A stretch of DNA of 64,000 nucleotides from Candidatus Altiarchaeota archaeon (lineage in GTDB: Archaea > Altiarchaeota > Altiarchaeia > IMC4 > QMZM01): positions 48,471-112,470 of the forward strand of contig JAFGDV010000002.1 of NCBI GenBank assembly GCA_016931955.1, written 5' to 3'. Both the position numbers and the translations under genes were made by a program. Within the stretch, counting starts at the first letter, position 1; every line of letters starts with the position of its first letter. Below the pieces are notes generated by a model, which ran no database searches, had not been told where the DNA came from, and saw only the letters and a list, made by a program, of their open reading frames with translations. Positions 3,312 to 47,392 of the stretch are shown here, piece after piece.

Positions 3312-3977
3312 TTAGGTGAAGAGTTTGTGGACCCATGATTTTCCTTTTTTCTCTTTTATGTTCTCTTTGGTTTTTTTGTCGATGAGTGTCAGTAGTTTTG
3401 TCGCTGAGTTTGATTCGAGTAGTATGATAAAGTTTCCTGAGACTTCTCCCTTCAGACCCTTGAATTCTACCTCAACTATGAGACCGACGTTGACCTCTCT
3501 CCGCACCCCTAGGAGGACGAAGTTTACTATGGAGCTTGCAAAATTAAAAACCGTTACTGGTTGTGATGGATAGATCTTTATTTCTACGAAATCGGCTATT
3601 GCATTCATGAACGTTGCCGTCAGGATGCTTCCAATCTCTTCCAGGATTGAACGACCTTCCATATCCACCATATCCGTGGTCCCGACCTCCCTGCCCTCTA
3701 GTGTGTCTATGAATATGAGGGCTGTTTTCCGCGGGAATATCAGGATGGTTGTACCAGAGATATCCCCCAGAACCCGTGAGTATACGCCTACAGACAGGAC
3801 GTTATTTTTGCCGAAGTATTTTGGTATCTGGCTTATGGGTATGAGGCTTAGTTTAGTGAGCCTAACATTGACTCTCTCATCTATCATCTTTGAGAGAGCT
3901 GTGCTTGAATGCCACATCGCTATTGCTATAACCTCTTTTAGAGCATCCTTCGCTAGTTCGGTTAAGTTAAGTGTCAC
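3312..3977 (-). CDS. cheC: CheC-like protein, both ExxN sites degenerate
   Basis: DALKE..STALSKM and SILEEIGSIL CheC repeats. Confidence 0.8.
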   Translation of the reverse strand: MTLNLTELAKDALKEVIAIAMWHSSTALSKMIDERVNVRLTKLSLIPISQIPKYFGKNNVLSVGVYSRVLGDISGTTILIFPRKTALIFIDTLEGREVGTTDMVDMEGRSILEEIGSILTATFMNAIADFVEIKIYPSQPVTVFNFASSIVNFVLLGVRREVNVGLIVEVEFKGLKGEVSGNFIILLESNSATKLLTLIDKKTKENIKEKKGKSWVHKLFT

Positions 3978-4221
3978 TTTTGATATTCCCGTTAAATATA
4001 AAGGGTTGCATTCATATTAAAACTTGATGCAGTTTAAACCGGTCTGGTCTGATTCCATGGGGAGCCTGATTACAGGAAAAAAAAGTCGCTAGGGTTTATG
4101 ACGCAACGAGAGATAGGAAGAAAGAAATCGTCACTTTCGCTGAGTGCTTGGGGAAGAAACCTATTCTAGGAGAATGTTAAAAAAGGATGGATTCTCCATT
4201 CGATCAATGGAGAATGTATCC

Positions 4222-4767
4222 TCACTTTGGTTTCTTTTCCAGTGTTTTTAGCTCGTCTAACTGCTCTTCATCTAAGAGGTTTTCTCCTTCAATGGTCTTC
4301 TGTATGTTGTCTATATGTTCATAGTCTTCATCAACCAAGACCTTGCTTAGATCCAACAGGATGAGCAGTCTTTCGCCTATTATACCCACGCCTTCCAGGT
4401 AGTCTGAACTGACCCTCTTCGCTATTATTGAGGGCGCTGGCTCAACCTGGTCACTGTTAAGCCTCATAACCTCTGTGGCTGAGTCAACTATCATACCAAC
4501 TGTGTTTCCAACTACTTCAAGGACTATTATCCTTGTGTCGGTGTTGGCCTTCCTCAGGGGGAGACCCAACTTCATGGCAAGATTTATGACTACCACGATC
4601 CCTCCTCTGAGGTTGATGACTCCTTCGATGTATTCTGCTGTATTGGGTATCTTCGTTATTTCCTCCATACGGATGATCTCTCGAACATCGCTTATGTTCA
4701 CACCGAATTCCTCATCACTAAGGGTAAAGACTACAATCTGCCTCTCCTCATCATCTCCTCCTTTCAT
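4222..4767 (-). CDS. cheW: Chemotaxis coupling protein CheW
   Basis: IVVFTL..EEFGVNI..VREI, GVINLRG, GMIVD motifs; start moved to ATG 4767 after an RBS-like GAGGGAG. Confidence 0.93.
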   Translation of the reverse strand: MKGGDDEERQIVVFTLSDEEFGVNISDVREIIRMEEITKIPNTAEYIEGVINLRGGIVVVINLAMKLGLPLRKANTDTRIIVLEVVGNTVGMIVDSATEVMRLNSDQVEPAPSIIAKRVSSDYLEGVGIIGERLLILLDLSKVLVDEDYEHIDNIQKTIEGENLLDEEQLDELKTLEKKPK

Positions 4768-4809
4768 TTCTCCCTCTAATCCTAGTCTTGCAGGCATTCT
4801 ATGCACCCC

Positions 4810-6942
4810 TCAGATTCTTTCATTACCTAGTTTTAATCGTCCCGTGTTTCCTATGTCATCAAAGCTTCTAGCTCCAAATTGGCCTTGCTCTCTTATCTTG
4901 AACTTGGAAACAACGGTCTTCAGCTCCTCGGCGCTGAGGTTGAATTGTTGAGCTGTCTTTGACACCTGCTGCATGGAGGCTGTGACGCTCTGCACTGAAG
5001 AGGATACCTCCTCAGAGCTGGCCGCGTTTTCTTGAGCTACCTCTGCCATCTCAACCAGTGAGCTGGTCACACCCTGTACTAGGTCGGGTATTGCTTCGAA
5101 TGACTTCATCGCCTCTTTTACGGCGGCTATACCTTCCTCGACCTGCTTTGTGTTGTCATCCATTGTGCTGACTGCATGTGATATCTCGTTCTGTATGTCC
5201 GTTATCAAACCCGCAATCTGTTCGCTTGCGCCTCTCGAGTCCTCGGCGAGCTTCCGTACCTCGTCTGCTACAACCGCGAATCCTCTTCCAGCTTCACCTG
5301 CTCTTGCGGCCTCAATCGCTGCGTTCAGCGCCAGTAGGTTGGTCTGCTCTGCTATGTCCTTGATCGTGTCCACGATCCTACCTATCTCCTCTGACTTTCC
5401 GCCAAGTGATCCGATCTTTGAAGCGCTTTCCTTTGATGTAACGCTTATCTGAGCCATCTTTTCGTTCACGAGCTTGGCTGACTTGCTTCCTTCTTCGGCG
5501 CTCTCTGCTGTTTTCTTGGCTAATTCCTGCGACTCTGTGGCCCCTTGTGAAACGATCTGCACCCCTTTGACGATCTCCTGCATTGTCGAAGCTACTTGTT
5601 CCATCGCCGCATTTGTTTCCTCGGACGACGCTGAAAGCTCCTCAGCAGCTACTGCTGTTGAAGTGGCGTTATTCTTTATGTTTCCTATCAGATCCATGAG
5701 GTTGCTGGCCATTGTCGCGAATGCATTACCTATCATACCTACCTCATTCTTAGCGGATATGCCAACGACATCTAGGGTAAGATCACCAGCTGCTACACGC
5801 TGCATCTGCCTGACTATCAGGTTAAGCCGGTTGGTCAGGAAGTTCGCGAAGAAGTAAGCCGCCAGTGAACCGAGTACTATAGCCAGTGCACACACCATTA
5901 TCGTCATGTCCTGAATCTGTATTATCCCATCATCGAAGTCTTCCCCGTAGGCGCTTGAAGCGATGACCCATTCCCACTCATCGAAATATGCGAAGGCTGC
6001 AAGCTTGCTCGAAGCCCTGCTTTCTCCTTTATTCGCCCACGTGTAACGGTATACGTCTGTCTCTCCCTCACTCAGGGCTGTTGCCTTGTCTATTATCTCT
6101 TGTATGAAGAGGGTTCCATCATCCAACTTCGAATTGATGATGTTCTGTCCATCGCTCTCCCTCTTGTATGAGAGAACATAGTTCCCTTTTGTGTCAAGTA
6201 TCCAGATGTATCCCCGCTCTCCTATGACTACCTTGGCGAGGTTGCCCTTCAGTGTTTCCTGATACTCATTCTCAGGCACGCCAACGTATAGGACGCCTAT
6301 CACCTTATTGCTTTCATCCTTTATTGGTTCATAAGCGCTTAGGTAGTACCCAGTCACCACGAATGCTCTTCCGTAGTAGGTCTGACCCCTCATCACAGTC
6401 TGATAAACCTCTGAATCAGATGGGATGTATGTTCCAACAGCCCTTGAACCATCCAGGTTAAGGACATTGGTTGATATCCTCAACAGCCCGTTAGGGATGA
6501 CTTGGAATACTGTCGCTGTCCCGCCCACCATGCTCTGGATTTCGTCAACGATCTCGTAGTTGTAAGCAAGCTGCTTTTCGCCTATCTTCATCTTTGAGAT
6601 GGTTACTGGCTGGCTGCCTTGGGTTACCTGGTTTACGGCGGTGAACTCCATTGTCTCCATTGGATCCAAGTAGGGCCTGCCATAGCCATACATAACGCTG
6701 CTGGCAACCCTCAGATCAGAGTTCACCTTGCTCTGCGCCACCTCATAGATGTTCTGAACATCCTTTGAGATTATCAGGGCTTGCTCTTGCAGCATTCCTT
6801 CGATCTGATTGAAGGTCTCTCTACTGGTCGAATCATAGCTGATGTAACCAAGCGTTACTACTGGTATCGACACCAGCAAGATGCAGATAGCCATCAGTTG
6901 CCATCTAATACTTATATCATTAAATATGTTTTTGATGTTCAT
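4810..6942 (-). CDS. Methyl-accepting chemotaxis protein (TM, Cache_3-Cache_2-like sensor, TM, HAMP, MCP signal)
   Basis: [38 protein letters not shown] hairpin; two TM helices; RISTNV..RAVGT Cache motif. Confidence 0.95.
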
Positions 6943-7246
6943 CTATATCACCTTTTTCTTTCTTTATTTTGTTTTTTTAATCTTATATGGGCAGTTTGAT
7001 AGCTGGGGTGGGTGCGCCCATCAGACCACCCTAAGTTTTATCTTCTAAAGTTATTTCTGCAAACTTATATAAATATGTTTCTATATTTCTACGTCGGCAT
7101 AGTGATATCTCAACATAATTATCATTTGACTAAACGCTCATGAGCCACATTATAAGTCAAAAGAATGCATATAACATCTGAAGATGGCTGTATTAGATCA
7201 ACAAAAAATAGGTTAAGTATTTACTTATTACTGCCATCTTATGCTA

Positions 7247-7660
7247 TCACTTATAAAAGATAGGTTTACCTTTAGATCGGACCAACCAATACTCTACAGT
7301 CCTGCCAACCCTCTTCCTTGAGATAACACCCTTGCTCTCCAAACTCTTAAGATGTTTACTGAGGGTTGGTTTGGTTACCCTTGTTTTCCCGAGCAATTCA
7401 GTAAAATTCAGTTTACCTTTGTCTAAGGCTGCTAATATACTGTCTTCAAGATTTTCCTCCCCAATTGTCAACCTTTCTTTACCAATCATCGACTTGATCT
7501 CCATTACCTCCATAAACAACCGAGGGATTATGCCAGAATCCTCACCCAGTAGCCTGCGATTCAAATCCCTCAAGTCCTCCAATATCTGGGCTATCCTCAC
7601 ATCATCCACACTTCTGCGCCCTATTTCCCCCCTCAATCTGCTAAGATCATCGGAATCCAT
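7247..7660 (-). CDS. ArsR/MarR-like winged-helix protein
   Basis: FTELL...TKPTLSKHLKSLESKGVI..RVGR.VEY; ATG 7660 directly after the cheC stop. Confidence 0.75.
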   Translation of the reverse strand: MDSDDLSRLRGEIGRRSVDDVRIAQILEDLRDLNRRLLGEDSGIIPRLFMEVMEIKSMIGKERLTIGEENLEDSILAALDKGKLNFTELLGKTRVTKPTLSKHLKSLESKGVISRKRVGRTVEYWLVRSKGKPIFYK

Positions 7661-7661
7661 C

Positions 7662-8336
7662 TCACCCAAGCCCCTCCCCAAATGGAGAACCAAGCTTCGT
7701 TTGAATGGCTTTGAGGATATTCCCAATTGATTTGTCATCAAGTAGGAAAACGAATTCCCCCCTCAGAGATCCCCCAGAACACATAAACTCGGTCTGGGAT
7801 ACTAGAGAATAATTTATTGACTCCTTCACACTCAAAAGCACAAAATAGACAATAGCGCTTGCTATATCAAAGACTACTGACGGCACAGACAACTCAACCT
7901 CCAGATCCAAGAACTCAGCTAAGGTATTGACATACGATGCAGAGAGTATGCTCCCCAGCTCGCCCAAGGCAGACCTATCAATGCTCTTCATAACATCCGT
8001 AGTTCCAGGCTCCCTACCGTTCAGTACATCAACCAGGGACAATGCGCTCTCCCTTGAGAAGAATAGGAGGCTTGTGCCGGCAAGATCCCCCCTCAACCTC
8101 ACGTATATGCCAGTCACAAGCATATTTTTCTGTCCCACGCAGCTTGCAATCTGGTCTAAGGGGATCAGATCCATTCCAGACATCTCTATGTCGACCCTCC
8201 TATCAATCAATTCAGATAAAGCGATTGTTGCATGGCCCATACCGATAGTCGCTATCTCCTGTAGCGCGTCAAGCTGAAGCTCTGTCAACTTCCCATACAA
8301 GCTATCGCTCTCCACCGCTTCCTTCCTATAGGACAT
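7662..8336 (-). CDS. cheC: CheC-like protein, both ExxN sites degenerate
   Basis: DALQEIATIGMGHA and SALGELGSIL. Confidence 0.85.
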   Translation of the reverse strand: MSYRKEAVESDSLYGKLTELQLDALQEIATIGMGHATIALSELIDRRVDIEMSGMDLIPLDQIASCVGQKNMLVTGIYVRLRGDLAGTSLLFFSRESALSLVDVLNGREPGTTDVMKSIDRSALGELGSILSASYVNTLAEFLDLEVELSVPSVVFDIASAIVYFVLLSVKESINYSLVSQTEFMCSGGSLRGEFVFLLDDKSIGNILKAIQTKLGSPFGEGLG

Positions 8337-8349
8337 GTTGCTCCCCAGA

Positions 8350-8970
8350 TCAAAGAGACTTCAATTTTCTGTCAATCTTGTTAACCAGAACGCCCAACGA
8401 AGACGAATCCAAGAGGAATATGAAATCACCCGTTATCTCGCCCCTCTTCCCCCTGAATTTGACCTGGATAATCAAAACAGACTCTATCCTCTTATCAATG
8501 CCTCGAAGCACGAAATCTATCAGAGACTTTGCGACGTCAAAAACAATGCAGGGAGGAGAATGATACAAGGTAACACCTAAAAAGTTGCCCAACTCGGTGA
8601 GGTAACTTGCCGTCAATATGTTACCAACCTCTCCCAAGGCAGAGCGATCATCGTAACTTAGAATCTCCGTGGTCCCAATATCCCTGCCGTAGAGCAGGTC
8701 AGATAAAGCCAGTGAGCTCTCACGCGAGAGGACCAAGAGGCTTGTTCCGCCCAGGTCGCCCATCATCCTCAAGTAGATACCCATTGCAAGCGTATCTGGA
8801 CCCCCCACCCTCTTCGGCACTTCCCCTATAGGCAGAAACTGCACCTTAGACATCTCTACCTCAACACGGCTTTCAACCATCTTGGAGAGCGACTTTGTGG
8901 CAGTGACCATGCCTTTATCCGCAACGCCCTTTAAAGCCCTCTTTTGTCCCTCCGTAAGTTGAGCAACCAT
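8350..8970 (-). CDS. cheC: CheC-like phosphatase (second site intact)
   Basis: SALGEVGNIL; CheC fold pattern. Confidence 0.85.
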   Translation of the reverse strand: MVAQLTEGQKRALKGVADKGMVTATKSLSKMVESRVEVEMSKVQFLPIGEVPKRVGGPDTLAMGIYLRMMGDLGGTSLLVLSRESSLALSDLLYGRDIGTTEILSYDDRSALGEVGNILTASYLTELGNFLGVTLYHSPPCIVFDVAKSLIDFVLRGIDKRIESVLIIQVKFRGKRGEITGDFIFLLDSSSLGVLVNKIDRKLKSL

Positions 8971-8980
8971 CTTCTTTTAC

Positions 8981-9460
8981 TTAGATCGAGGTAGTCGGAC
9001 CATGTATCCTGCTGACGACGACCTCACCTGTTTCGGTGTCGAACCAGATAGATCTGCCCTCGGTCCCGCCAACATCCTCGGCTACTATCTCAATGCACTT
9101 CTCTCTGAGCTTTTTTCTGACTGCTTCCACATTTTTCTTGCCTATGTCAGATATCCTTGGTACGTTGGGGAAAATCTCGGCTCCGCCGCATAGTTTCGCT
9201 TTTATATCATGTGTCTTGCAGCCGAGGATGAGCATGCTCTTTACCATGGCATCTACTGTCTTGTCGACGAACCTCAGGGGATTGATACCCTGAGCAGCCT
9301 CTTTGCTATCTGGGAGGATTATGTGAGCTAAAGCGGCTATCTTTGTCTTCTCGTCTCTTAGACAGATGGCTACGCATGAGCCCAAACCAAGAACCTCCAG
9401 TATGCAAGGATTATGTATTATCTTGAACTCTGCCATGCCGACTGTTATCTTCTTAGTCAT
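8981..9460 (-). CDS. cheD: Chemoreceptor glutamine deamidase CheD
   Basis: GLGSCV, AHIILP, AKLCGGA, AEDVGG..GR. Confidence 0.93.
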   Translation of the reverse strand: MTKKITVGMAEFKIIHNPCILEVLGLGSCVAICLRDEKTKIAALAHIILPDSKEAAQGINPLRFVDKTVDAMVKSMLILGCKTHDIKAKLCGGAEIFPNVPRISDIGKKNVEAVRKKLREKCIEIVAEDVGGTEGRSIWFDTETGEVVVSRIHGPTTSI

Positions 9461-10106
9461 CTTTTTTTTCTTCCATCTCCAAGAGGTACCTGACGTTTTT
9501 GATAAGCACGCCCATGTGAGAGTAAAACAGAACTACGAAGTGGCCGGTTATCTCCAACCCTTCTACGAGGAATCGGGTGTTGAACAAGAGGGCATTTTCG
9601 ACATCGCAGGCATGTTGCGCTATTATGGGGTCCATCACAGAGTCGAGCATATCCGCTGCCAGCGCTGGAAGAGACTCCACAAGGCTCAGGTTAAGGTACT
9701 CTGCAATTGCAGAGAGATAGCTTCCTGCGAGGATGTTTCCGATCTCCATCAATGTGGAACGATCCATATCCGACAGCTCTTCAGCTCCAGTTGCTTCCTC
9801 CCCTTGCAGGATCTTCGCAAGTGTTGCCGCATCCTTTACAGGGAGTACCAGAAGTAGACTGCATACCTCGAATTGGTTATCAAGGGATGTGCCATCAATA
9901 TGCAGGTATATGTTGGTTATCTCCTTCTCTGGTCTGCCCATCTTGGATGTGACGGTTTCAAGGGGACACACCTCCATCCAAGGAAAGCTTACCTCGATCT
10001 TCTTGTCTGTAAGGGACGATAGGGCGATCGATGCATGCCCAGCTCCAATGGAGGATATCTCCATCAGGGCATCTAACTCCAGTGGCGTCAGGTTCTTGAA
10101 TTTCAT
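9453..10106 (-). CDS. cheC: CheC-like phosphatase (second site intact)
   Basis: DALMEISSIGAGHA and STLMEIGNILAG. Confidence 0.88.
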   Translation of the reverse strand: MKFKNLTPLELDALMEISSIGAGHASIALSSLTDKKIEVSFPWMEVCPLETVTSKMGRPEKEITNIYLHIDGTSLDNQFEVCSLLLVLPVKDAATLAKILQGEEATGAEELSDMDRSTLMEIGNILAGSYLSAIAEYLNLSLVESLPALAADMLDSVMDPIIAQHACDVENALLFNTRFLVEGLEITGHFVVLFYSHMGVLIKNVRYLLEMEEKKDD

Positions 10107-11107
10107 AGTATCTCAACGATTTTATCTGCGATACCCAGCAAAGGCAGGATGAAATCCGCATCCCCGTTTCTTATAATCATTTTAGGCATTCCAAATATTA
10201 AACTTGTTGATTCATCTTGGACTATGATCTTTCCACCATTCTTTTTTACCCACTTCACCCCATTCGCGCCGTCATCTCCCATACCAGTTAATATAACCGC
10301 TATTACGTTTTTACCGCATACCTTCGAAACGGACTTCAATGTGACGTCTATGCAAGGCTTTACTATAGTATGTTTTTTGTTTAATTGAGTAAATAAATGT
10401 TTCCCTTTTTGCACTACCTCCAGGTTGTAACCCCCAGGAGCCACTAGAACCTTGCCTTTATCAAGTAGGCTGCCTTCTTTTGCTTCTTCCACCTTTAGTG
10501 GGCACACTGCATCCAGCGTCTCAGCGAACGCCTTAGTGAATCCCGCCGGCATGTGTTGTACGACTAGAACGGCAGCTGGAAAATCCTTTGGGAACGAAGA
10601 CAGTATAGTTCTAATTGTGGCCACACCACCGCAGGAAGCACCCAATACCAAAACCTTCTCGGATATCTTAGGCGCAGACAATTTTTTCTTCGGCTTCTTT
10701 ATCACGAGTTTTTTTATCTCAAGGGATGATGCGACTCGCACCAATGCTATCAGCTCTTCCTTCATTTCCTCCAGATCGCTGAGCCGGTTAGGCATCACTA
10801 TGAAGTCCACTGCCCCATAGCCTAAGGCACTCAGCATCTCCCGCCTTCCCAGATCAGATTCTCGGCCGACCACTATCGTTGGAGTAGGATCAAGCAGCAT
10901 TATGTTGTAGAGGATGTCCAATGCATGTACTCCCTTCATCTCTATGTCTAGTAGAACAACATCCGGCTCAAGGAGCTCAATCTTGTCTAAAGCCTCCTCA
11001 GCTAGACCAGAGCGGTGGATGACCTTTATCTCTGGTTCGGACTCCAGCATACATGTAAGCTTGACCCCAAAAAAATAAGAATCCGCTATTATGAGGACCT
11101 TGATCAT
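10103..11107 (-). CDS. cheB: Chemotaxis methylesterase CheB (receiver plus esterase)
   Basis: GASCGG, VQHMP, LTGMGDDG catalytic motifs; N-terminal receiver. Confidence 0.93.
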   Translation of the reverse strand: MIKVLIIADSYFFGVKLTCMLESEPEIKVIHRSGLAEEALDKIELLEPDVVLLDIEMKGVHALDILYNIMLLDPTPTIVVGRESDLGRREMLSALGYGAVDFIVMPNRLSDLEEMKEELIALVRVASSLEIKKLVIKKPKKKLSAPKISEKVLVLGASCGGVATIRTILSSFPKDFPAAVLVVQHMPAGFTKAFAETLDAVCPLKVEEAKEGSLLDKGKVLVAPGGYNLEVVQKGKHLFTQLNKKHTIVKPCIDVTLKSVSKVCGKNVIAVILTGMGDDGANGVKWVKKNGGKIIVQDESTSLIFGMPKMIIRNGDADFILPLLGIADKIVEIL

Positions 11108-11116
11108 TCTCCCATT

Positions 11117-11849: not shown

Positions 11850-11926
11850 TATCTTGACTAATTAAATATCTATCTTCTCATTTATATCCTTTTTGTTTTT
11901 CTCATTTAAAGTTCTATTCTATTATA

Positions 11927-12289: not shown

Positions 12290-12296
12290 CGCTAAA

Positions 12297-12947: not shown

Positions 12948-12962
12948 TTTAATGGTGATATC

Positions 12963-36822: not shown

Positions 36823-36855
36823 TCCCTCATTTTTACTTTAATTGCGTGATCTAAA

Positions 36856-38476: not shown

Positions 38477-40063
38477 ATGTTCTCCAAGTTATTCAATTGG
38501 TTGGTTAAGCGGATGCCGTACACTTCCGCCCTTGTCTTGATCTGTTTTACCTGGGCTATCCTGGTCACCGTCTTCGGAGCCTTACTGGTCATCATCGGCG
38601 CCAGGGAAAATTTTGAGGTTACTGGAACCAGAGACCTATATTTGATGCTCTATTTCGGTGGTGTTTCAATGGCTTCCACCCTCATCCTGATAGAATACAG
38701 CATCCTCCGCGTTTTCGGGATCAGGTTTGAGAGGAAAGAGTTCACTCCACTAAACGACAACATCGTGGACGGTCACTTCAGAGAGAATATCTCAGATGAT
38801 GACCTTGTGAAGGCCTACTATGCTCTCGTCAACCTAACCAAGTGGAAGGAGACACGGGATGTCGTCTATGCTCAGATAGTCGTCTTCGGCGCCGCCTTCG
38901 GGGAGTGGCTTATCAGCGGACAGTTGATGAACGTGCCCATCATCTTTGTAGGCAGCGAAATCGCGGTTTTTTCGCTTTACGTGTATGCTGCCGTCTTCCA
39001 TGACACCATAACCTCTCCAGCTAGGAGGGAATGCAAGCTTCTCATGGCTGAACGAGGAATACCATTCAAAGAAACCCCCATGTTGAGTCTGAGGACTAAG
39101 TCAAGGTTCTTCATTGCCTTGATTGGCTTGGCTCTTCTAGCGATCCTTATCCTGATAAAGCCCTTTAATCCGTTGATTGTGGTCCTCGCCTTGATAACCC
39201 TCGCCATAGTCAGCATGTTAAACGACTTCGTATCTAAGTCTATTCAAACAGAATTTGAGGAGATTAAGGAGTCAGCCCATAGCTTGGCGGAAGGCAAAAA
39301 GGCGCTGTTTTTCTCAGGCAGCTCTGACAGGGAGATGTTTGATCTAACGCAGAGTTTGAATAAAACCGCCGGAGAGATAACAGATTACCAGAGATCCCTT
39401 AAAGAAAAGATAAATGAATTGGAGGAGTATATGTCTGTGGCTTCACACGACCTCCAGCAGCCCCTGGCGACGATTCAGGCTTATACGCAGATTCTTAAGG
39501 TGGTTGAACAGGATGATGAGAAACTGAAGAAAGTCAAGGTCGTTGAATCCCAGGCAGACTTCATGAGGGAGATGCTCAATGATCTACTGGAGTACTCCCG
39601 CGCCAAAAAGACTATGGAATACGAAGAAGTGAAGCTCCATAAAGTCCTTGAGGAAATCAGAGAACACCTGAAAGTGCAGATACAAGAAAAAGAAGCTAAG
39701 ATAATATTCAAAGACATTCCTGAAACAATAATAGGACAACCTAAGAGAATAGAGCAACTATTCCTGAACCTAATAGGCAATGCAATAAAGTACTCAGACA
39801 AACCGATAATAGAAGCAGGCTGCACCGACCGAGAACAGGAATACGAATTCTACGTAAAAGACAACGGAAGAGGAATAGAACAAAAATACCACGAAAAAAT
39901 ATTCAAACCATTCTGGAAGCTCGGCAAAGAACCAGGAACCGGAATGGGTCTCGCAATATGCAAAACCGTGGTCGAAAACCACGGAGGAAAAATCTGGATA
40001 GAATCCACCCCAGGAAAAGGCTCAACATTCAAATTCACAATACCAAAAAAACAGGGGGGATGA
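38477..40063 (+). CDS. Multi-TM sensor histidine kinase (HK1)
   Basis: SHDLQQPL H-box; NLIGNAIKY, DNGRG, GTGMGL; HAMP-like segment. Confidence 0.92.
   Translation: MFSKLFNWLVKRMPYTSALVLICFTWAILVTVFGALLVIIGARENFEVTGTRDLYLMLYFGGVSMASTLILIEYSILRVFGIRFERKEFTPLNDNIVDGHFRENISDDDLVKAYYALVNLTKWKETRDVVYAQIVVFGAAFGEWLISGQLMNVPIIFVGSEIAVFSLYVYAAVFHDTITSPARRECKLLMAERGIPFKETPMLSLRTKSRFFIALIGLALLAILILIKPFNPLIVVLALITLAIVSMLNDFVSKSIQTEFEEIKESAHSLAEGKKALFFSGSSDREMFDLTQSLNKTAGEITDYQRSLKEKINELEEYMSVASHDLQQPLATIQAYTQILKVVEQDDEKLKKVKVVESQADFMREMLNDLLEYSRAKKTMEYEEVKLHKVLEEIREHLKVQIQEKEAKIIFKDIPETIIGQPKRIEQLFLNLIGNAIKYSDKPIIEAGCTDREQEYEFYVKDNGRGIEQKYHEKIFKPFWKLGKEPGTGMGLAICKTVVENHGGKIWIESTPGKGSTFKFTIPKKQGG
39974..40032 (+). 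repeat. Kinase 3' segment repeated identically at about 42013 and 43685, with near copies in HK4/HK5
   Basis: gaaaaccacggaggaaaaatctggatagaatccaccccaggaaaaggctcaacattcaa. Confidence 0.85.
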
Positions 40064-40064
40064 G

Positions 40065-40430
40065 ATGGTTAAGGTTCTCGTAGTTGACGACTATGCTCCG
40101 CTTAGAGAGATTGCAGTCATGATCCTGAAGTCTAAGGGTTTCGATGAAGTGTTTGAAGCGGAGAGCCCGGAGGAGGGGATGAGGTTATTCGAGGAACATA
40201 AGCCAGAGCTTGTCATATTAGATATAATAATGCCTGTCACCAATGGAATAGACTTGGCTGCGGAGATCAAGAAAGTTAATCCAGAAACTAAGGTGGTCAT
40301 GCTCAGTGTCTTGGGCGAGAACACTCATGGAAAGAAACGAGTAGAGGAGGTGGCTGATCTTTACTTGGTGAAACCTTTAACCCATGAAAAAGTCGATAAA
40401 ATCAAGGAGATACTAGACTCAGGGCCTTGA
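40065..40430 (+). CDS. Single-domain response regulator
   Basis: VVDD, ILDIIMP, YLVKP. Confidence 0.9.
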   Translation: MVKVLVVDDYAPLREIAVMILKSKGFDEVFEAESPEEGMRLFEEHKPELVILDIIMPVTNGIDLAAEIKKVNPETKVVMLSVLGENTHGKKRVEEVADLYLVKPLTHEKVDKIKEILDSGP

Positions 40431-40437
40431 TAAAAAA

Positions 40438-42099
40438 ATGTTCTTTAGATTGTTCGAATGGTTGGTGAAGAGGACTCCTTATACCCTAGCATTTATTACT
40501 CTTGGTTTTTCTTGGACTGCATTGGTTGCGAGTTTTGGCGCTTTATTGATTATCATTGGGGCTGATTTTGAAGCCACTGGGACAAGGGATATTTTTCTCT
40601 TGCTTTTGGCGGAAACGGTAGGAATTGCTTCCTTCCTCACCTTCTGGGAATACGGTATCTTCCGGCTTGTTGGGATAAAATGGGAGAGAAGAGAATTCAC
40701 GGTTCTTAACGAGAATATCATCCAAGGTCATTTTCGGCAGGATGTTTCCAATGAAGCGCTTTTAGAGGCCTATGATTCTCTTAAACAAATAACAAGATGG
40801 ACAGTACTCAAAAATATTCAATACGGTCAGATAGTAGCTTCTTTTACTGCCTTGGGGGAATGGTTGTTTAGTGGTCAATTAACAAATGTCCCAATCATAT
40901 TTGTTGGGCTTAACATTGCTACTATTTCACTTTATATATATGGGGCTGTCTTCTATGACTCAATGACCTCCCCAGCTAGGAGGGAGTGTAAGAGGCTTTT
41001 AGCTCAGAGGGGCATTCAATTTGATGAGTCTTCTTTCCTGAGCCTAAGGACTAAATCAAGGTTCTTCCTTACCTTGATAGGCTTCGCTCTTTTAGCAATG
41101 TTGATCATCATCAAGCCATTTAACCCGCTTAGTGTAGTGCTCGCCGTTACTACCTTAGTTATAATCGGCTTACTGAACGACTTGGTATTTAGGTCTATCT
41201 ACATGGAATTCACTGAAGTCGAAGAATCGGCCAAGAATCTAGCGGAAGGCAGGGAAGCATTATTTTTCTCAGGCAGCTCAGACAAAGAAATACTTGACCT
41301 GTCAGAGAGCCTGAATGAAACCGCTCAAGAGATCAGGGAATATGAAAAAGCCCTTGAGGAGGAGAAGGCCTCCCTAGAGATCAAGGTAAAGGATAGAACC
41401 AAGGAGTTGGAGGAGCTAACCAAGAGCCTTGAGGAGAAGGTAGAGAAAAGAACCCATGAGCTCCAAGACAGAATTGAAGAGCTTGAAGAGTATACTTCTG
41501 TTACTTCCCACGACCTGCAACAACCCCTAGCGACAATTCAGGCATATACGCAGCTTAGTGTGCAGAATGCTAAGGTGATTGAGTCTCAGGCGAACTTCAT
41601 GAGGAATTTACTTGAGGACTTGTTAAGCTATTCACGGATAAAGGAGAAGGCGCCCTCCGAAGAAGTAAAACTCCTGGAAGTCTTAGATGAAGCAAAAGAG
41701 CACCTGTCAGCGCAGATACAAGAGAAAGAAGCGGAAATAACACTCAAAGACATTCCAGACACCATCACTGGACAGCCTAAGAGGATAGAGCAACTATTCT
41801 TGAACCTGATCGGGAACGCAATAAAATACACTGATGATAAGCCGGTGATTGAAGTAGGATGCACAGAACAAGAACAAGAATACCTATTCTGGATCAGAGA
41901 CAATGGTAGAGGAATCGAACAAAAATACTTCGAGAAAATATTCAAACCCTTCTGGAAGCTCGGCAAAGAACCCGGAACCGGAATGGGGTTGGCGATCTGC
42001 AAAGCAGTAGTGGAAAACCACGGAGGAAAAATCTGGATAGAATCCACCCCAGGAAAAGGCTCAACATTCAAGTTCACAATACCCAAGAAGAAAACATAG
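40438..42099 (+). CDS. Multi-TM sensor histidine kinase (HK2)
   Basis: TSHDLQQPL; HATPase boxes; extra S-helix repeats. Confidence 0.92.
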   Translation: MFFRLFEWLVKRTPYTLAFITLGFSWTALVASFGALLIIIGADFEATGTRDIFLLLLAETVGIASFLTFWEYGIFRLVGIKWERREFTVLNENIIQGHFRQDVSNEALLEAYDSLKQITRWTVLKNIQYGQIVASFTALGEWLFSGQLTNVPIIFVGLNIATISLYIYGAVFYDSMTSPARRECKRLLAQRGIQFDESSFLSLRTKSRFFLTLIGFALLAMLIIIKPFNPLSVVLAVTTLVIIGLLNDLVFRSIYMEFTEVEESAKNLAEGREALFFSGSSDKEILDLSESLNETAQEIREYEKALEEEKASLEIKVKDRTKELEELTKSLEEKVEKRTHELQDRIEELEEYTSVTSHDLQQPLATIQAYTQLSVQNAKVIESQANFMRNLLEDLLSYSRIKEKAPSEEVKLLEVLDEAKEHLSAQIQEKEAEITLKDIPDTITGQPKRIEQLFLNLIGNAIKYTDDKPVIEVGCTEQEQEYLFWIRDNGRGIEQKYFEKIFKPFWKLGKEPGTGMGLAICKAVVENHGGKIWIESTPGKGSTFKFTIPKKKT

Positions 42100-42109
42100 A
42101 AGATAAAAA

Positions 42110-43774
42110 ATGTTTTATGGGATATTTAATTGGTTTGTGAAGAGGCTTCCGTATAGTCTAGCAGTGATGATCTTCAGTTTTATTTTGAGTGCTTTGATGA
42201 TCGTCTTCGTTGCCTGGTTTATTCTGATCGGGACTGATATTGAGTCTGAAGGAACCGCTGGTGTTGTGATATCCGCTCTTTTCTTGGCAGGGTTTGTCTC
42301 CTTCATATTATGTATCATAGAATACGGTTACGGCATCTCTTTTGGACTGGAGGGGAAAAGAAAGGGTTTCAAGGTCCTCAACGACAACATCATAGAGGGG
42401 CGCATTAGACAGGATATATCTGACCAGGCACTCTTAGAGGTCTACGACGCCCTTAAAAAAATAAACAGGTGGATATTGAGCAGACATATGTTATATGCTA
42501 ACTCCATAGCAACCGCTGGTGCTTTAGCAGAACTGCTGACAAGTGGGAATTTAATGAATGCAGTTATCATTTGGGCTATTGGATTAATCTGGGGCAATAT
42601 AGCAGTCATAACAGGAATCGCCTATGACCTATTCACTCTCCCAGCTAGGCGTGAATGCAAGCTGCTCTTGAATTCGAGAGGCATCCCCTTCAAGGACGAC
42701 GCCTATTTCCTTGGTCTTAGGATTAAATCCGACCTATTCATCATCTTAACTGCCTTTGGTTTGGGTGTGATTTTATTGATTTTCCGCCCAATCACCTGGG
42801 AGCTTGTAGTATCTGCCGCCATCATCCTCCTCACCGTTGTCTTATTAACTAAGCTAGTATTCGAGACCATCTATGCCGCGTTATTGGAGATTAAAGACTT
42901 AGCCAGTGATCTGGAGCATGGAAGGAAGGTTTCTTTCTTCACCGGCAGCTTGGACCGGGAAATCGTGGACCTGTCTAAGAGCCTGAATGTCGCAGCTGAT
43001 GAGATCTACTTTACTAAGAAGGCCCTTGAGGAAGAGAAGACTTCCCTGGAGCTTAAGGTTGAAGATAGGACTAAGGAGTTGAAGGGACTTAATGAGAGCC
43101 TGGAGGAGAAGGTAAAAGAGAGAACTAAAGAGCTTGAGGGGAAGATAGGTGAGTTGGAGGAGTATACCTCCGTCACCTCCCATGACCTCCAGCAGCCACT
43201 TGCTGCGATTCAAGCCTACACACAGCTCACTCAAAAAAATGCTAAGATGATAGAATCCCAGGCGAACTTCATGAGAGAGTTGCTTGAGGACTTGTTAAGT
43301 TATTCACGAATAAAGGAGAAGGCACCCTCTGAGGAAGTGAAACTCCAAGATATATTGAAAGAGGTAAAAGAACACCTGAAAGTGCAGATACAAGAAAAAA
43401 ACGCAGAGATAACACTCAAAGACATACCTGAAACAATAACAGGACAACCTAAGAGGATAGAGCAACTATTCCTAAACCTGATCAGCAACGCATTGAAATA
43501 CACCGACGGAAAAACAACAATTGAGGTCGGCTGCGAGGGGGGAGAGAGGGAATATGAATTCTGGGTGAAGGACAATGGTATAGGAATCGAACAAAAATAC
43601 TTCGAGAAAATATTCAAACCCTTCTGGAAGCTCGGCAAAGAACCCGGAACCGGAATGGGCCTCGCCATATGCAAAGCAGTAGTGGAAAACCACGGAGGAA
43701 AAATCTGGATAGAATCCACCCCAGGAAAAGGCTCAACATTCAAATTCACAATACCCAAGAAAAATGTTCCTTAG
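42110..43774 (+). CDS. Multi-TM sensor histidine kinase (HK3)
   Basis: Same architecture as HK2. Confidence 0.92.
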   Translation: MFYGIFNWFVKRLPYSLAVMIFSFILSALMIVFVAWFILIGTDIESEGTAGVVISALFLAGFVSFILCIIEYGYGISFGLEGKRKGFKVLNDNIIEGRIRQDISDQALLEVYDALKKINRWILSRHMLYANSIATAGALAELLTSGNLMNAVIIWAIGLIWGNIAVITGIAYDLFTLPARRECKLLLNSRGIPFKDDAYFLGLRIKSDLFIILTAFGLGVILLIFRPITWELVVSAAIILLTVVLLTKLVFETIYAALLEIKDLASDLEHGRKVSFFTGSLDREIVDLSKSLNVAADEIYFTKKALEEEKTSLELKVEDRTKELKGLNESLEEKVKERTKELEGKIGELEEYTSVTSHDLQQPLAAIQAYTQLTQKNAKMIESQANFMRELLEDLLSYSRIKEKAPSEEVKLQDILKEVKEHLKVQIQEKNAEITLKDIPETITGQPKRIEQLFLNLISNALKYTDGKTTIEVGCEGGEREYEFWVKDNGIGIEQKYFEKIFKPFWKLGKEPGTGMGLAICKAVVENHGGKIWIESTPGKGSTFKFTIPKKNVP

Positions 43775-45395
43775 ACTATTCAACTGGCTGGTTAAGAAAA
43801 AGGATGTGCCTTATACCTTTGCAGTGATTTTCCCAGGCAGTTCTTTCGCTATCTTGGGTGCTGTTTTAGGCGGCATCATCCTACTCCGCCGAGCCGATTT
43901 CGAGTCTACTGGAACTGGGATGATATTCGTCCTCAGTCTTACCCTTCTGATGACTTTCGTCGTTTCGCGTACGCTTATAAGGGCTGGAGCTCTTAGGGTT
44001 TTTGGAACCATTTTAGGGGAGAGGAGAGAGTTTAGTATCCTTAACGACAACATAATCAGCGGCGTTATTCGTTCTGATGTATCTACCTCAACACTCTTGC
44101 AAGTATATGGCTCACTCACTCAATTGAATAATCATATGATGAGGATGCATCTAAGTGACATATGTGTCGTAGTCCCAAATGTTGCGGCAATAGAGTTCAT
44201 TGCTAGCTGGTTTATCACTGGTAGCTTCCAGCTTACAAATACCTTAATGATACTTTTGGTCGGAGCCATAATAGCTGCCTTAGATATCATCTGCGATCTG
44301 CCGTTGTGGGAGCTGTCGATTTATCCGACCCGGAAGGGATGTAAGACCCTCTTAGCTGAGAGGGGCGTTCATTTCGAAGAAACCCACTTCATGAGCTTGA
44401 GGGCTAAGTCAAGATTCTTCATCATATTGATGGCTATTATATTGTTGGCTATGTGGACACTCGCTGAATCCCCAAACCTTGACCTCATAGTTTTTTCTAT
44501 TATCATCTTATCCCTTACTGTCTTATTAAGCGATATGGTGTTCCAATCATTTTATAAAGCATTCGCTGAGGTTGAGGAATCCGCAAGAGACCTGGCGAAA
44601 GGCAACAAGGTCCTGTTTTTCTCAGGCAGCTCAGACAGGGAAATATTAGATTTGTCAAAGAGCCTGAACATCTCCGCCGACGAAATCTATTCCACCAGAA
44701 AAGAACTTGAACAAGAGAAGCTTTCCCTTCAAGAGAAGATAGATGAACTTGAAGAATATACATCAGTTACGTCACATGATCTGCAGCAGCCGTTGGCGAC
44801 GATCCAAGCCTACACGCAGCTACTTAAGGCTGCGGAAAAGGATGAAGTAAAAAAGAAAAACGTGGACGTAGTAGAGTCGCAGGCAAATTTCATGCGAAGC
44901 CTCCTTGAGGATCTGCTGAATTATTCGAGGATGAAGAAGGAGATGCCTTACGAGGAAGTGGATGTCAAAAAAATATTGGAGGGAGTTAGAGAACACCTCA
45001 ACCCCGAAATAGAGAAAAAAGAAGCGGAGATAACATTCAGAGATTTGCCCGATAAAATCATCGCACAACGAAAGGCGATAACACAACTATTCCACAACCT
45101 CGTAGACAACGCATTAAAGTACTCAGATGAGAAACCAGTGGTGGAGATAGGCTGCGAAGAACGTGAGCAAGAATATGAATTCTACGTCCGGGACAATGGA
45201 ATAGGAATAGAAGAACACTTCCACGAGAAGATTTTTAAACCATTCTGGAAGTTGGGTAAAGAACCCGGCACAGGAATGGGGTTGGCGATCTGTAAAGCCG
45301 TGGTAGAAAACCACGGAGGCAGGATATGGGTAGAATCAGAACCCTGGAGGGGGTCAACATTCAAATTCACAATACCAAAGAAAAATGTTCTTTAA
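43764..45395 (+). CDS. Multi-TM sensor histidine kinase (HK4)
   Basis: H-box and HATPase boxes. Confidence 0.92.
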   Translation: MFLRLFNWLVKKKDVPYTFAVIFPGSSFAILGAVLGGIILLRRADFESTGTGMIFVLSLTLLMTFVVSRTLIRAGALRVFGTILGERREFSILNDNIISGVIRSDVSTSTLLQVYGSLTQLNNHMMRMHLSDICVVVPNVAAIEFIASWFITGSFQLTNTLMILLVGAIIAALDIICDLPLWELSIYPTRKGCKTLLAERGVHFEETHFMSLRAKSRFFIILMAIILLAMWTLAESPNLDLIVFSIIILSLTVLLSDMVFQSFYKAFAEVEESARDLAKGNKVLFFSGSSDREILDLSKSLNISADEIYSTRKELEQEKLSLQEKIDELEEYTSVTSHDLQQPLATIQAYTQLLKAAEKDEVKKKNVDVVESQANFMRSLLEDLLNYSRMKKEMPYEEVDVKKILEGVREHLNPEIEKKEAEITFRDLPDKIIAQRKAITQLFHNLVDNALKYSDEKPVVEIGCEEREQEYEFYVRDNGIGIEEHFHEKIFKPFWKLGKEPGTGMGLAICKAVVENHGGRIWVESEPWRGSTFKFTIPKKNVL

Positions 45396-46968
45396 GTTAT
45401 TCAACTGGCTGGTGAAGAGGGTTCCATATGTATTAGCTGTTTTACTCCCCGTCGACATATGGAGTGTATTAATGGGAGTTCCAGGCTTTGTCCTTATCTG
45501 GGTTCTCGAAATCGATTTAATGGGGAATACCACAACAGGAGGCCAGTTCATCTTTGTCTGGTTTTTCTTTCTTTTCCTTGCCTTCGTGGGGGCTGCTTTG
45601 GAGATGGGTATTCTGAGGCTCTTTGGAATAAAATTTGAGAGAAAACACATAAGGCCTCTTAACGAGAACATCATTGATAATCATATTCGGCCGAATATTT
45701 CAACACCTGAACTTCAACAAGTTTACTTCGCCCTCAATAAGTTCGATAGGTGGGTGATAAAAACGCATATTAGATATGTTTCTGCTGTCGTATTTTGTGA
45801 CGCTTTTGTGATGGGTTTAATTACCGGCGACTGGGATCTTGCCCTCTTCATCTTCGAGGTCGCATTCCTCAGTGGTCCTTTGGCTTTGATATGTGGTATC
45901 CCTCTTTGGGAGTTGTTTGTGGCTCCCGTACGTAAGGAATGTAAGATGCTTCTACGTCAGAGAGGTGTGGATTTTGAGGAAAAGCCGTTCATGAGCTTGA
46001 GGATTAAGTCGAAGTTTTTCACTATCTTGGTTGGTTTTTCTCTTTTGGCGTTCTTAATTCTCCTCCGTTCCTGGGATCCTTTTTTTATAGTATTTACGAT
46101 TATCATCTTACTTATCCTTGCTTTTCTAAGCGACTTGATATTTAAATCAATCTACTCCGCCTTCTTAGAAATCGAGGAATCTGCCAAGAATCTGGCTGAA
46201 GGAAAGAGCGTATCATTCTTTTCAGGCAGCTTTGATAAGGAGATACTTGACTTATCACAAAGCCTAGACGAAACCGCTGGAGAGATAAGAGACTACCAGA
46301 AATCCCTTGAAGAAAAGATAAAGGAGTTGGAGGAGTACATGTCTGTTGCTTCACACGACCTGCAACAGCCCCTTGCTGCGATCCAGGCCTACACTCAACT
46401 TCTTAAATCGGTCGAAATGAACGAAACAGGTAAAAGGAATGTGGGAGTGATTGAGTCTCAGGCAGACTTCATGCGCGATCTACTGAACGATCTGCTGGAG
46501 TATTCTAGGGCGAAGAAGACCATGGAATACGAGAAAGTGAAGCTCAGAGAGGTCTTGGAAGAAGTCAGAGAACACCTGAAAGTGCAGATACAAGAAAAAA
46601 ACGCAGAGATAACACTCAAAGACATACCTGAAACAATAACAGGACAACCTAAAAGAATCAGTCAATTATTCCTGAACCTCATAAGCAACGCAATAAAATA
46701 CACCGAAGGAAAGCCAGTGGTTGAGGCAGGCTGCGTGGAGAGAGAGGAGGAATATGAATTCTGGGTGAAGGACAATGGTATAGGAATCGAAGAGAAATAC
46801 TTCAACAAAATATTCAAACCCTTCTGGAAACTGGGAAAAGAACCCGGAACCGGAATGGGGTTGGCGATCTGCAAAGCCGTGGTCGAAAACCACGGAGGCA
46901 GAATCTGGATAGAATCAGAACCAGGAAAAGGCTCAACATTCAAATTCACAATAGAGAAGAGGAGTTAA
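45385..46968 (+). CDS. Multi-TM sensor histidine kinase (HK5)
   Basis: H-box and HATPase boxes. Confidence 0.92.
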   Translation: MFFKLFNWLVKRVPYVLAVLLPVDIWSVLMGVPGFVLIWVLEIDLMGNTTTGGQFIFVWFFFLFLAFVGAALEMGILRLFGIKFERKHIRPLNENIIDNHIRPNISTPELQQVYFALNKFDRWVIKTHIRYVSAVVFCDAFVMGLITGDWDLALFIFEVAFLSGPLALICGIPLWELFVAPVRKECKMLLRQRGVDFEEKPFMSLRIKSKFFTILVGFSLLAFLILLRSWDPFFIVFTIIILLILAFLSDLIFKSIYSAFLEIEESAKNLAEGKSVSFFSGSFDKEILDLSQSLDETAGEIRDYQKSLEEKIKELEEYMSVASHDLQQPLAAIQAYTQLLKSVEMNETGKRNVGVIESQADFMRDLLNDLLEYSRAKKTMEYEKVKLREVLEEVREHLKVQIQEKNAEITLKDIPETITGQPKRISQLFLNLISNAIKYTEGKPVVEAGCVEREEEYEFWVKDNGIGIEEKYFNKIFKPFWKLGKEPGTGMGLAICKAVVENHGGRIWIESEPGKGSTFKFTIEKRS

Positions 46969-47011
46969 GCTATTTATAGGATAAACCCCAATAAAATATA
47001 TTCTACTCAGA

Positions 47012-47392
47012 ATGGAATCGAAGGTCCTCATAATAACATTGGTAGTCGACGACTATGCTCCGCTGAGGGAAGCTGCTGTCGAGATCTTGAGGTCGAAGGG
47101 TTTCAGAAACATCTTTGAGGCGGAAACCCCTGAGGAAGGTATGGATTTGGTCAGAGAACATAAACCCGACCTCGTCATCTTGGACATAATCATGCCTAGT
47201 ATAAGGGGGATAGATCTGATAGACGACGTCAAAAAGATTAGTCCAGAAACCAAGGTGGTGATGTTGAGCGTTTTAAGCGGAGAAGCCACCATACAGGAGT
47301 CAATGACTAAGGGAGCTGACCTCTATCTGGTGAAACCCTTGACTCCAACAAAAGTCGACGAGATCAAGAAAGTGCTTAGGGTACAAACATAA
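47012..47392 (+). CDS. Single-domain response regulator (paralog of 40065..40430)
   Basis: VVDDYAPLRE, ILDIIMP, ADLYLVKPLT. Confidence 0.9.
   Translation: MESKVLIITLVVDDYAPLREAAVEILRSKGFRNIFEAETPEEGMDLVREHKPDLVILDIIMPSIRGIDLIDDVKKISPETKVVMLSVLSGEATIQESMTKGADLYLVKPLTPTKVDEIKKVLRVQT

Follow-up and report, generated by a model that had tools for sequence, protein, structure and literature searches.

The DNA considered here is a window of 64,000 nucleotides from a Candidatus Altiarchaeota archaeon (NCBI GenBank assembly GCA_016931955.1, contig JAFGDV010000002.1, positions 48,471 to 112,470, or C5:48471-112470 in our contig numbering). Our subject is its 44-kb stretch at 3312-47392, in which chemotaxis (che) genes enclose hydrogenase maturation (hyp) genes and a degenerate copy of the Mvh-type hydrogenase genes mvhDGA, marked below by an asterisk. 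An initial annotation, made from the letters alone, had joined the che and hyp genes, the pseudo-hydrogenase, V4R/Cache sensors, a second hydrogenase and several kinases into one H2/formate/redox-sensing network of pseudoenzymes. On balance, we think it probable that three things lie side by side here and not one system, with relocated hyp genes and a dead mvh copy sitting inside a che cluster. The genome itself (G000) is an assembly of 1.55 Mb in 46 contigs, 92% complete. The gene map rests on an open reading frame (ORF) listing with Pfam and NCBIfam scans, and comparisons were made across 61 related genomes including its own, leaving 60 relatives; the family itself has 22 genomes in the collection. 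The closest named relatives of the window CheA and HypD carry the label Candidatus Altiarchaeales.

The che genes form two blocks, at 3.3-11.8 and 19.4-26.4 kb, around hypABCDE, an endopeptidase gene and the mvhDGA copy, and the Pfam/ORF map agrees with the initial annotation on this arrangement. Block I (3312-11849) is on the reverse strand and was assigned by Pfam, NCBIfam and the reading of motifs. It comprises genes for a weak, degenerate CheC-like protein (3312-3977), CheW (4222-4806), a Cache_3-Cache_2/HAMP/MCPsignal receptor (4810-6942), an ArsR-type winged helix-turn-helix protein (7247-7741; Pfam/NCBIfam), a degenerate CheC-like protein (7662-8336), CheC (8350-8970), CheD (8981-9460), a further CheC (9453-10106), CheB (10103-11107), and CheY with a second receiver (11117-11849). 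The ArsR-type ORF, which lies between the receptor and CheC genes, overlaps the next gene by 80 nt as called, and its true start is therefore uncertain. The core of block II (19396-24445) was read from Pfam, homologs, a tree and synteny: a reverse-strand cheC (19396-20046) is followed on the forward strand by two cheY genes, cheA (20872-22461), cheC (22397-23155) and cheD, and on the reverse strand by cheR. Beyond it, on the forward strand, lie a gene for a weak CheC-like protein, CheC6w (24549-25157; Pfam), and two genes for KaiC/DUF7504 proteins (25159-25761 and 25771-26373; Pfam, NCBIfam and motif reading). The core kinase pathway of methyl-accepting chemotaxis protein (MCP), CheW, CheA and CheY is complete by Pfam; CheA, CheW, CheR, CheB and MCP are each present in one copy in the genome by tblastn, the product of 4810-6942 being the sole MCP found and, by its Pfam domains, a receptor and not a kinase.

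Several of these proteins have decayed folds. The stretch holds seven CheC-like ORFs, and an alignment read by eye reveals graded decay of their two E-x2-N motifs, which we take to be the active sites of the CheC/CheX/FliY phosphatase family. The motif is in neither site of the proteins starting at 3312, 7662 and 24549, in the second site only of those at 8350, 9453 and 19396, and in both sites of that at 22397-23155 alone, which places the second site in four of the seven. The initial annotation had counted three degenerate CheC proteins; three CheC-like proteins do lack the motif altogether, but the CheC-like total is seven. Its other two observations on the cluster are borne out: the CheB receiver reads AD and MP where DD and KP would be expected, and the Walker A motif G....GK[ST] is missing from both KaiC-like proteins. 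For the latter the Pfam E values are 8.5e-5 and 0.023 with KaiC and 4.5e-5 and 3e-7 with DUF7504, their FlaH matches in the NCBIfam scan are weak (E 0.0009-0.008, below cut-offs), and they resemble DUF7504/RAD55-type Atlas clusters at 0.90-0.95.

Archaeal F1-type chemotaxis, which couples to the archaellum via CheF and ArlCDE in Halobacterium and Haloferax (PMC4858521), shares with this cluster CheA, CheW, CheY, CheB, CheR, CheC, CheD and an MCP. The window differs from it in its CheA without a P2 domain, in the seven CheC-like genes of which three are motif-less, in the ParA and Walker-A-less KaiC-like genes within the cluster, and in that no CheF, archaellin or ArlD/E was found. The CheA has 529 residues. 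Short forms like it (39 sequences) need 3 state changes on a FastTree tree of 118 CheA relatives, compared with about 33 when labels are shuffled, and the nearest CheAs outside the short group are P2-bearing archaeal proteins of Methanolobus, Methanoperedens and Syntrophoarchaeum, 44-52% identical over 71-81% of the query.

Between the two blocks lie genes of a different kind. On the forward strand, hypA, hypB, hypC, hypD and hypE (11927-15250; by Pfam for A, B, D and E and by ORF reading for hypC, 12963-13202) are followed by the gene for a HycI-type endopeptidase, HycI_1 (15195-15713; Pfam, NCBIfam and synteny). On the reverse strand are genes for MvhA*, resembling the Mvh-type (group 3c) large subunit and open over 458 codons (15708-17084; Pfam, NCBIfam and alignment), the small subunit MvhG* (17081-18061) and a stand-alone MvhD-like protein, MvhD* (18051-18440; both by Pfam and NCBIfam). 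The gene for a ParA/MinD-type ATPase with the motif KGGTGKTT completes the series (18427-19302, reverse strand; Pfam, NCBIfam, motif and orthologs in relatives). ParA-type ATPases are known from chemosensory clusters, such as PpfA with TlpT in Rhodobacter sphaeroides and ParC in Vibrio, and MinD4 of Haloferax may be set beside them. The window has in common with PpfA and ParC a deviant-Walker-A ATPase inside a che cluster, encoded in relatives directly upstream of a soluble PAS receptor; it differs in that parA is here followed by a dead hydrogenase, the soluble receptor being gone, and in that one relative (G001) has ParA without che.

CheA occurs in seven of the 61 genomes, counting the present one and one with fragments only; full-length forms are 61% identical in G004, 53-54% in G013, G017 and G021, and 45% in G028, which belongs to another family. 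Synteny was read by tblastn of all window proteins and by ORF and Pfam analysis of the DNA around the relatives' CheA, with two metagenome contigs carrying a 77% CheA added. In these relatives the che cluster is unbroken. Its order in G004 is CheC-CheC-CheD-CheC-CheB-CheY-CheW-PAS-MCP-DsrE-TusA-ParA-CheC-CheY-CheY-CheA-CheC-CheD-CheR-CheC-KaiC-CheC, then glycogen debranching enzyme (GDE) and isopropylmalate dehydrogenase (IPMDH), which adjoin the cluster as they do in the window, and the same core is present in both metagenome contigs, G013 and G017. No hyp or mvh genes were seen in the che-cluster DNA of G004, G013, G017 or the two metagenome contigs, with the exception of a 28% HypE-family match in G004 (L033), about 17 kb downstream of the cluster, that by our reading would be a paralog. 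In the same-genus genome G001, the left flank of the window (an Ig-domain protein, Nop56 and PfkB) is followed, some 2.5 kb on, by an orphan ParA (62%) that sits between unrelated genes and has neither che genes nor mvh* beside it. The che-hyp-mvh linkage of the supercluster that the initial annotation had proposed is thus absent from all relatives read; no normal cheF or archaellum locus, however, explains the Che system either.

The slot behind parA has other contents in relatives. ParA-TusA-DsrE is present in both metagenome contigs, an MCP beginning at the end of one contig and none being seen in the other, and in G013 and G017 ParA is followed by a receptor and CheW. The TusA (Pfam E 2e-18, with a CP motif) and DsrE-like (E 4e-17) genes between parA and the receptor, at L032:8038-8646 in G004 and at L041:288-900 and L042:126-720, make up a sulfur-carrier pair within a chemosensory operon, the receptor in G004 being a soluble PAS-MCP. 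By tblastn, the present genome has no orthologs of the relatives' TusA and DsrE, and the sole match to their PAS-MCP in it is the window Cache-MCP (33% over 359 residues).

Nor do che and hydrogenase genes travel together. Among the che-bearing genomes of the family, G004 and G013 have no MvhA or HypD hit, G017 has MvhA only, and G021 and the present genome have both; six family genomes have MvhA without CheA. In G020, CheA survives only as fragments, one with an in-frame stop, beside an intact CheY (G020:C96:16593-17626, G020:C1), which suggests that the che cluster is being lost there. A contig scan with the CheA query returned one locus, from an Ignavibacteria metagenome-assembled genome (MAG) at 38% identity, of no use for synteny.

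The hyp genes appear to be the general maturation set for the working hydrogenases of the genome. By tblastn, hypA-E and HycI_1 are single-copy, other HypE hits being paralogs of about 30% identity, and with hypF at C5:25957-28197 the genome has a complete hypA-F. HypD occurs in 22 of the 61 genomes. Of nine relatives' hyp loci examined, hypC/D adjoin hypF in eight and che genes lie beside hyp in none, and all five loci that reach far enough have the order hypF-hdrA/mvhD-mvhG-mvhA-hycI-hdrC-hdrB. The canonical locus of the present genome, C5:25957-34182, reads hypF-hdrA/mvhD-mvhG-mvhA-hdrC-hdrB; it contains no hycI, since the stop of mvhA overlaps the start of hdrC. At this working locus MvhD is part of an HdrA-MvhD fusion of 713 residues (G000:C5:28254-30395), the degenerate copy having a stand-alone MvhD. 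The genome has two endopeptidases and two intact large subunits, and because the second protease, HycI_2, adjoins the other intact large subunit (LSU2, below), HycI_1 is most plausibly the protease that serves the working Mvh hydrogenase. With hyp and HycI_1 as the sole maturation set, the position of these genes within the che cluster needs no sensing explanation. The GC content of the hyp-mvh* block and that of its third codon positions (GC3) are ordinary, and the nearest named relatives of HypD are Altiarchaeales; the block may have arisen by duplication or have been acquired.

It might be asked whether the interleaving is an assembly chimera of che and hydrogenase DNA from different organisms. 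The contig was assembled from a metagenome, and among pieces from four sequencing runs there is no single long piece across the junctions. One run, however, contains all 807 sampled words of 15000-22500, and in a run from a second study, a marsh metagenome, pieces with some 90% identity cover every one of the 30 bins of 3001-23000, including 17660-17919 inside mvhG*. At the junctions the genes overlap in frame and there is no shift in GC or GC3, and each flank has its counterpart in a relative: PfkB, to the left, in G001, and GDE/IPMDH, to the right, in G004. A chimera is, in our judgement, hardly credible. The marsh pieces that cover mvhG* also indicate that the mvh* copy exists in at least one more population.

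The initial annotation had recognized MvhA* as a degenerate hydrogenase, and the alignment confirms it. Where the window's intact paralog reads RICGVCPVAHH, MvhA* reads RMSGLCSWAHH, the first cysteine having become serine, and the counterpart of the paralog's DPCLSCAAH is the terminal SPSLPRL*, in which both cysteines, the aspartate and the histidine are gone and after which no C-terminal extension follows. Three of the four Ni-Fe cysteines are lost (C61, C454 and C457); the changes include E14N, C61S, R388S in the APRG stretch, D452S, C454S and C457R, E14 being presumably the proton-relay glutamate and R388 the catalytic arginine. Among database relatives (5842 hits, best identity 50-51% over 99% of the query), both cysteine pairs are kept in 118 of the 119 best listed, the remaining one having the N-terminal pair only. 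MvhA* still matches the VhuA model of NCBIfam at E 7e-89, below the equivalog cut-off. Of the 121 alignment columns with conservation of 97% or more, 29 (24%) are altered in it; none of 127 other Mvh-type sequences has more than 8 such changes, and their median is 0. Its end branch measures 0.84 in a FastTree tree of 71 rows, in which the median is 0.11, and it falls outside the clade of the genome's working MvhA and eight relatives' MvhAs, a long-branch placement that is unsure and from FastTree only.

The partner subunits have fared differently. MvhG* is 34% identical to the canonical MvhG and has 16 cysteines, most of them aligned by eye with the 16 of the latter, and MvhD* keeps the cysteines (FAC, EGC, MLC, GEC) that align by eye with those in the MvhD part of the HdrA-MvhD fusion. 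The genes overlap in succession, by 4 nt between mvhA* and mvhG*, 11 nt between mvhG* and mvhD*, and 14 nt between mvhD* and parA. The overlap of the parA stop with the mvhD* start leads us to read parA-mvhD*-mvhG*-mvhA* as one operon, the four genes being presumably co-transcribed.

Such a copy could be a redundant duplicate or acquired copy in plain decay, with the parA neighbourhood accidental. Its active site is fully dismantled and its C-terminal tail gone, the branch is very long, no ortholog is among the protein hits listed, GC3 is slightly below that of the working mvh genes, and the genome has two intact paralogs. Decay is nonetheless doubtful, as three tightly overlapped frames are still open, the iron-sulfur (FeS) cysteines of MvhG* and MvhD* are kept, and the relative about 90% identical in DNA still has mvhG*. 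When the working mvhA was substituted at random, in 300 trials per level, the frame survived 26 times at 90% protein identity, 4 times at 80% and never at 70% or less, whereas MvhA* has changed at 24% of the most conserved columns. An open frame in the face of such change makes it most likely that MvhA* has been kept by selection after the loss of catalysis, and it is probably a maintained pseudoenzyme.

In subunit set, in the gene order D-G-A and in the cysteines of the small and delta subunits, the copy resembles MvhAGD, the F420-non-reducing [NiFe] hydrogenase known from methanogens (group 3c, PDB 5ODC), from which MvhA* departs in lacking C61, C454, C457, the N-terminal glutamate, the APRG arginine, the DPC aspartate and the processing extension. 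Hydrogenase-derived proteins without a Ni-Fe site are known in NuoD/NuoB of complex I and in the Ehr group of group 4 relatives, which likewise combine a large-subunit fold devoid of metal cysteines with an FeS small subunit. NuoD and Ehr, however, are membrane-bound members of group 4 and form large conserved families, whereas MvhA* is soluble, of group 3c and so far seen in one species-level lineage. We found no report of a cysteine-less Mvh-type large subunit in the literature searched, which includes part of PMC9012536.

To the right of the che cluster, beyond genes for GDE and IPMDH (LeuB; 26370-29290, reverse strand), the remaining features of the stretch are all on the forward strand where a strand is given, and were assigned by Pfam unless stated. 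A 294-residue ORF, two stand-alone Cache proteins and a 92-residue ORF occupy 29504-32903. The Cache proteins are paralogs of the MCP sensor (42-50% over some 110-126 aligned residues); counting one elsewhere in the genome, there are three such proteins without a transmitter (30401-32903 and G000:C17:953-1909), 42-60% identical to the MCP sensor over about 110-320 residues. A third Mvh-type hydrogenase set follows at 33120-37065 (Pfam, NCBIfam and a structure match): first HycI_2, the second endopeptidase, then a 2x[4Fe-4S] ferredoxin (33607-33858; Pfam/NCBIfam), a V4R-like ORF of 182 residues (33859-34407; by Atlas likeness), small and large subunits (34409-36822) and a 69-residue ORF (36856-37065). 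The large subunit, LSU2 (35386-36822), is intact, with all ligands present and a match to 5odc_F at E 4e-126; it has no ortholog in the 60 relatives, in which its best matches are canonical MvhAs at 39-41%. LeuD, PadR and HIT genes separate this set from five HisKA/HATPase histidine kinases with two single-domain receivers (38477-47392). The kinases are tandem paralogs of 527-554 residues, 50-61% identical to the first, and their N-terminal halves of about 300 residues match no Pfam family.

The Cache proteins, hydrogenase and five kinases named in the initial annotation are thus confirmed by Pfam, but its V4R assignments are not: neither 29504-30388 nor 33859-34407 matches Pfam PF02830 at E up to 5, or any V4R model of NCBIfam, and the resemblance of 33859-34407 to Atlas clusters named 'hydrocarbon binding protein (contains V4R domain)', at 0.96, is a lead only. 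Its 'Cys-less TusA' at 31459-31737 has indeed no cysteine, but matches TusA only below the cut-off (Pfam E 0.0016), and its 'GG-less ubiquitin-like' ORF at 36856-37065 has no family match. Nothing but nearness ties this right-hand part to the che cluster. Farther right, FeoB, a DtxR-type repressor and NikR, proteins of metal homeostasis, flank formylmethanofuran dehydrogenase (fwd) genes at 47926-54872; no mcrA was found in the genome, and the fwd genes are therefore read as part of a non-methanogenic C1 pathway.

These results bear directly on the idea of one H2/formate/redox network, the model behind it being the regulatory H2-sensing hydrogenase HoxBC/HupUV with the kinase HoxJ, a hydrogenase-type heterodimer used in signalling that keeps its Ni-Fe site and binds H2. 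The idea draws on real features: the four genes from parA to mvhA* look like an operon enclosed by che genes, the FeS cysteines of MvhG* and MvhD* survive, MvhA* seems maintained, the CheC and KaiC folds are indeed degenerate, and the slot that holds TusA, DsrE and a receptor (with PAS in G004) in relatives may be one for redox or sulfur input. Against this, the linkage is missing from the two metagenome contigs as well as from G001, G004, G013 and G017; hyp and hycI_1 are housekeeping genes, with no second maturation set in the genome; the che-bearing G004 and G013 have no MvhA or HypD hits; and housekeeping genes (GDE, LeuB, LeuD and HIT) interrupt a stretch whose LSU2 is without ortholog. 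The only MCP is a Cache receptor, so an intracellular signal would have no soluble receptor. Moreover, in view of what the four cysteines are known to do, a protein with the sequence of MvhA* should be unable to bind or sense H2, unlike HoxBC/HupUV. We therefore do not uphold the single network and consider it unlikely.

What the Che system controls is probably not an archaellum. In the present genome there are no hits to CheF (PF04283), archaellin (PF01917) or ArlD/E (PF04659), the controls having given hits in known genomes (three for CheF), and no CheF is above cut-off in any of the 61. Archaellins occur in 11 of the 61, but neither archaellin nor CheF is found in any of the five che-bearing genomes of the family (the present one, G004, G013, G017 and G021; completeness 92% for the present one and 90, 83, 75 and 60% for the others). 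The one family genome with archaellins, G005, has six matches to them and no CheA. Neighbours of the relatives' che clusters are housekeeping genes, with no type IV pilus or archaellum genes beside them. The initial annotation had noted that the window holds no CheF or archaellum gene, which holds good for the whole 92%-complete assembly, and had suspected that the output may not be motility, a suspicion that these absences support. The genome has seven PilB/VirB11-type ATPase genes.

The contrary view, that Che steers an ordinary archaellum via CheF from genes in unassembled parts of the genome, can point to the fact that all the genomes are MAGs, including the present one, and to the archaellins in the order. 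F1 Che systems usually accompany archaella and are coupled to them in a 2026 survey, although the part of its text available makes no mention of Altiarchaeota (PMC13747009). The same absence in five of five che-bearing family genomes, the separation of archaellin from CheA in G005 and the lack of ArlD/E in the present genome leave this view only a slim chance, and in the accessible part of PMC8407392 Altiarchaeota are stated to have no archaella. An output other than swimming is thus indicated by the lack of archaellin, ArlD/E and CheF. As far as the consulted part of its text goes, a 2016 census of archaeal type IV filaments saw no evidence of Che control over other filaments (PMC4858521), and no paper describing Che genes in Altiarchaeota was found in the literature searched.

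A candidate for the missing link is a conserved pair of degenerate proteins. CheC6w adjoins the first KaiC-like gene (that of KaiC1) not only in the window but also in G004 and one metagenome contig. All three co-folding runs of the two gave an ipSAE (interaction score from predicted aligned errors) of 0.86, whereas none of three controls exceeded 0.00; partner pLDDT (predicted local distance difference test) was 88, with at least 98% of contacts shared. Of 157 solved complexes 116 come up to this mark, as do 2 of 215 mismatched pairs, a rough yardstick here since small alignments of our own were used. The predicted interface of KaiC1, at residues 21-25 and 120-129, is where the P-loop and Walker B motif would lie. 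The prediction supports, but does not show, that CheC6w binds KaiC1. ArlH (FlaH) and RAD55/DUF7504-type proteins share the RecA/KaiC fold of the window proteins; in contrast to ArlH, the window KaiC-like protein is without Walker A and is predicted to bind a CheC-like protein across its P-loop/Walker B face.

The nearest homologs of the KaiC-like proteins (38-42%), in another Altiarchaeales family without CheA, come directly after a full KaiC ATPase at each locus scanned. A protein of about 410 residues, a full KaiC ATPase and a DUF7504 protein recur there in the same order (L063-L067, in G029, G030, G031, G033 and G034), and a second DUF7504 gene follows in both of the loci in which it was looked for. 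At three of the four loci scanned for it, the gene before the ATPase has matches to the surface-type domains WxLIP_HBD, CARDB or DUF7507, all below Pfam cut-offs; at the remaining locus it has none. A surface-structure output would be a thin lead from these neighbourhoods.

Taken together, the three-part reading may be put as follows. The first part would be a single chemosensory cluster, in which the Cache receptor would signal through CheW to the P2-less, F1-like CheA and on to CheY-type receivers, with CheR, CheB, CheD and the CheC proteins serving adaptation and signal removal and the ParA/MinD ATPase probably positioning the array. The best candidate for an adaptor would be the conserved pair of a dead CheC-like and a Walker-A-less KaiC-like protein that are predicted to bind one another. 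In the second part, a lineage-specific rearrangement would have filled the slot behind parA, where relatives have tusA-dsrE and a receptor, with two items: the sole hypABCDE and endopeptidase genes, serving the working Mvh hydrogenase encoded 27 kb upstream, and a diverged mvhDGA, probably a maintained pseudoenzyme, that has kept the FeS cysteines of its small and delta subunits and lost the Ni-Fe site of its large one. The third part, after two housekeeping genes, would have no relation to the others and comprise the Cache proteins, the intact third Mvh-type hydrogenase and the five kinases in tandem. A bolder version has the CheC-like/KaiC-like pair replacing CheF-ArlCDE in some Altiarchaeales, reading phosphorylated CheY for a surface filament or adhesion machine, and the FeS-carrying, Ni-free Mvh-like complex replacing, in this species, the intracellular TusA-DsrE-PAS input of relatives and reporting the redox state of the cell; this we regard as speculative and rather unlikely.

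Several observations weigh against the three-part reading or temper it. All genomes compared are incomplete, the che-bearing ones at 60-92%. In databases, a HypD (71%) and a CheA (70%) seem to sit on one contig, and a closer relative may thus also have hyp near che. The persistence of ParA in the che-less G001 makes its tie to the chemosensory array uncertain. G028, which belongs to a different family, has a P2-bearing CheA and archaellins and no Pfam CheF hit, which implies that CheF detection in the order may be weak. The confidence in the protein pair is that of a model and not a measurement. With regard to MvhA*, no ortholog was found among the protein hits listed, the substitution model is crude, having neither indels nor rate variation, and retention is judged from one open frame; the marsh relative, about 90% identical, has a piece of mvhG*. 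Finally, mvh* occupies exactly the slot of the relatives' sulfur-carrier genes and receptor, overlapping parA, which leaves room for a redox-related input role.

The finding carries a caution against deducing function from the gene order of one genome, in that the most striking neighbours here, the hyp genes, appear to be moved housekeeping genes. A soluble large subunit of the Mvh type with an open frame but no metal site would, if true, be a rare example of a pseudoenzyme derived from a group 3 hydrogenase. And a Che cluster kept in archaellum-less Altiarchaeales, together with a newly predicted protein pair, provides a concrete place in which to seek a different output of chemosensory signalling.

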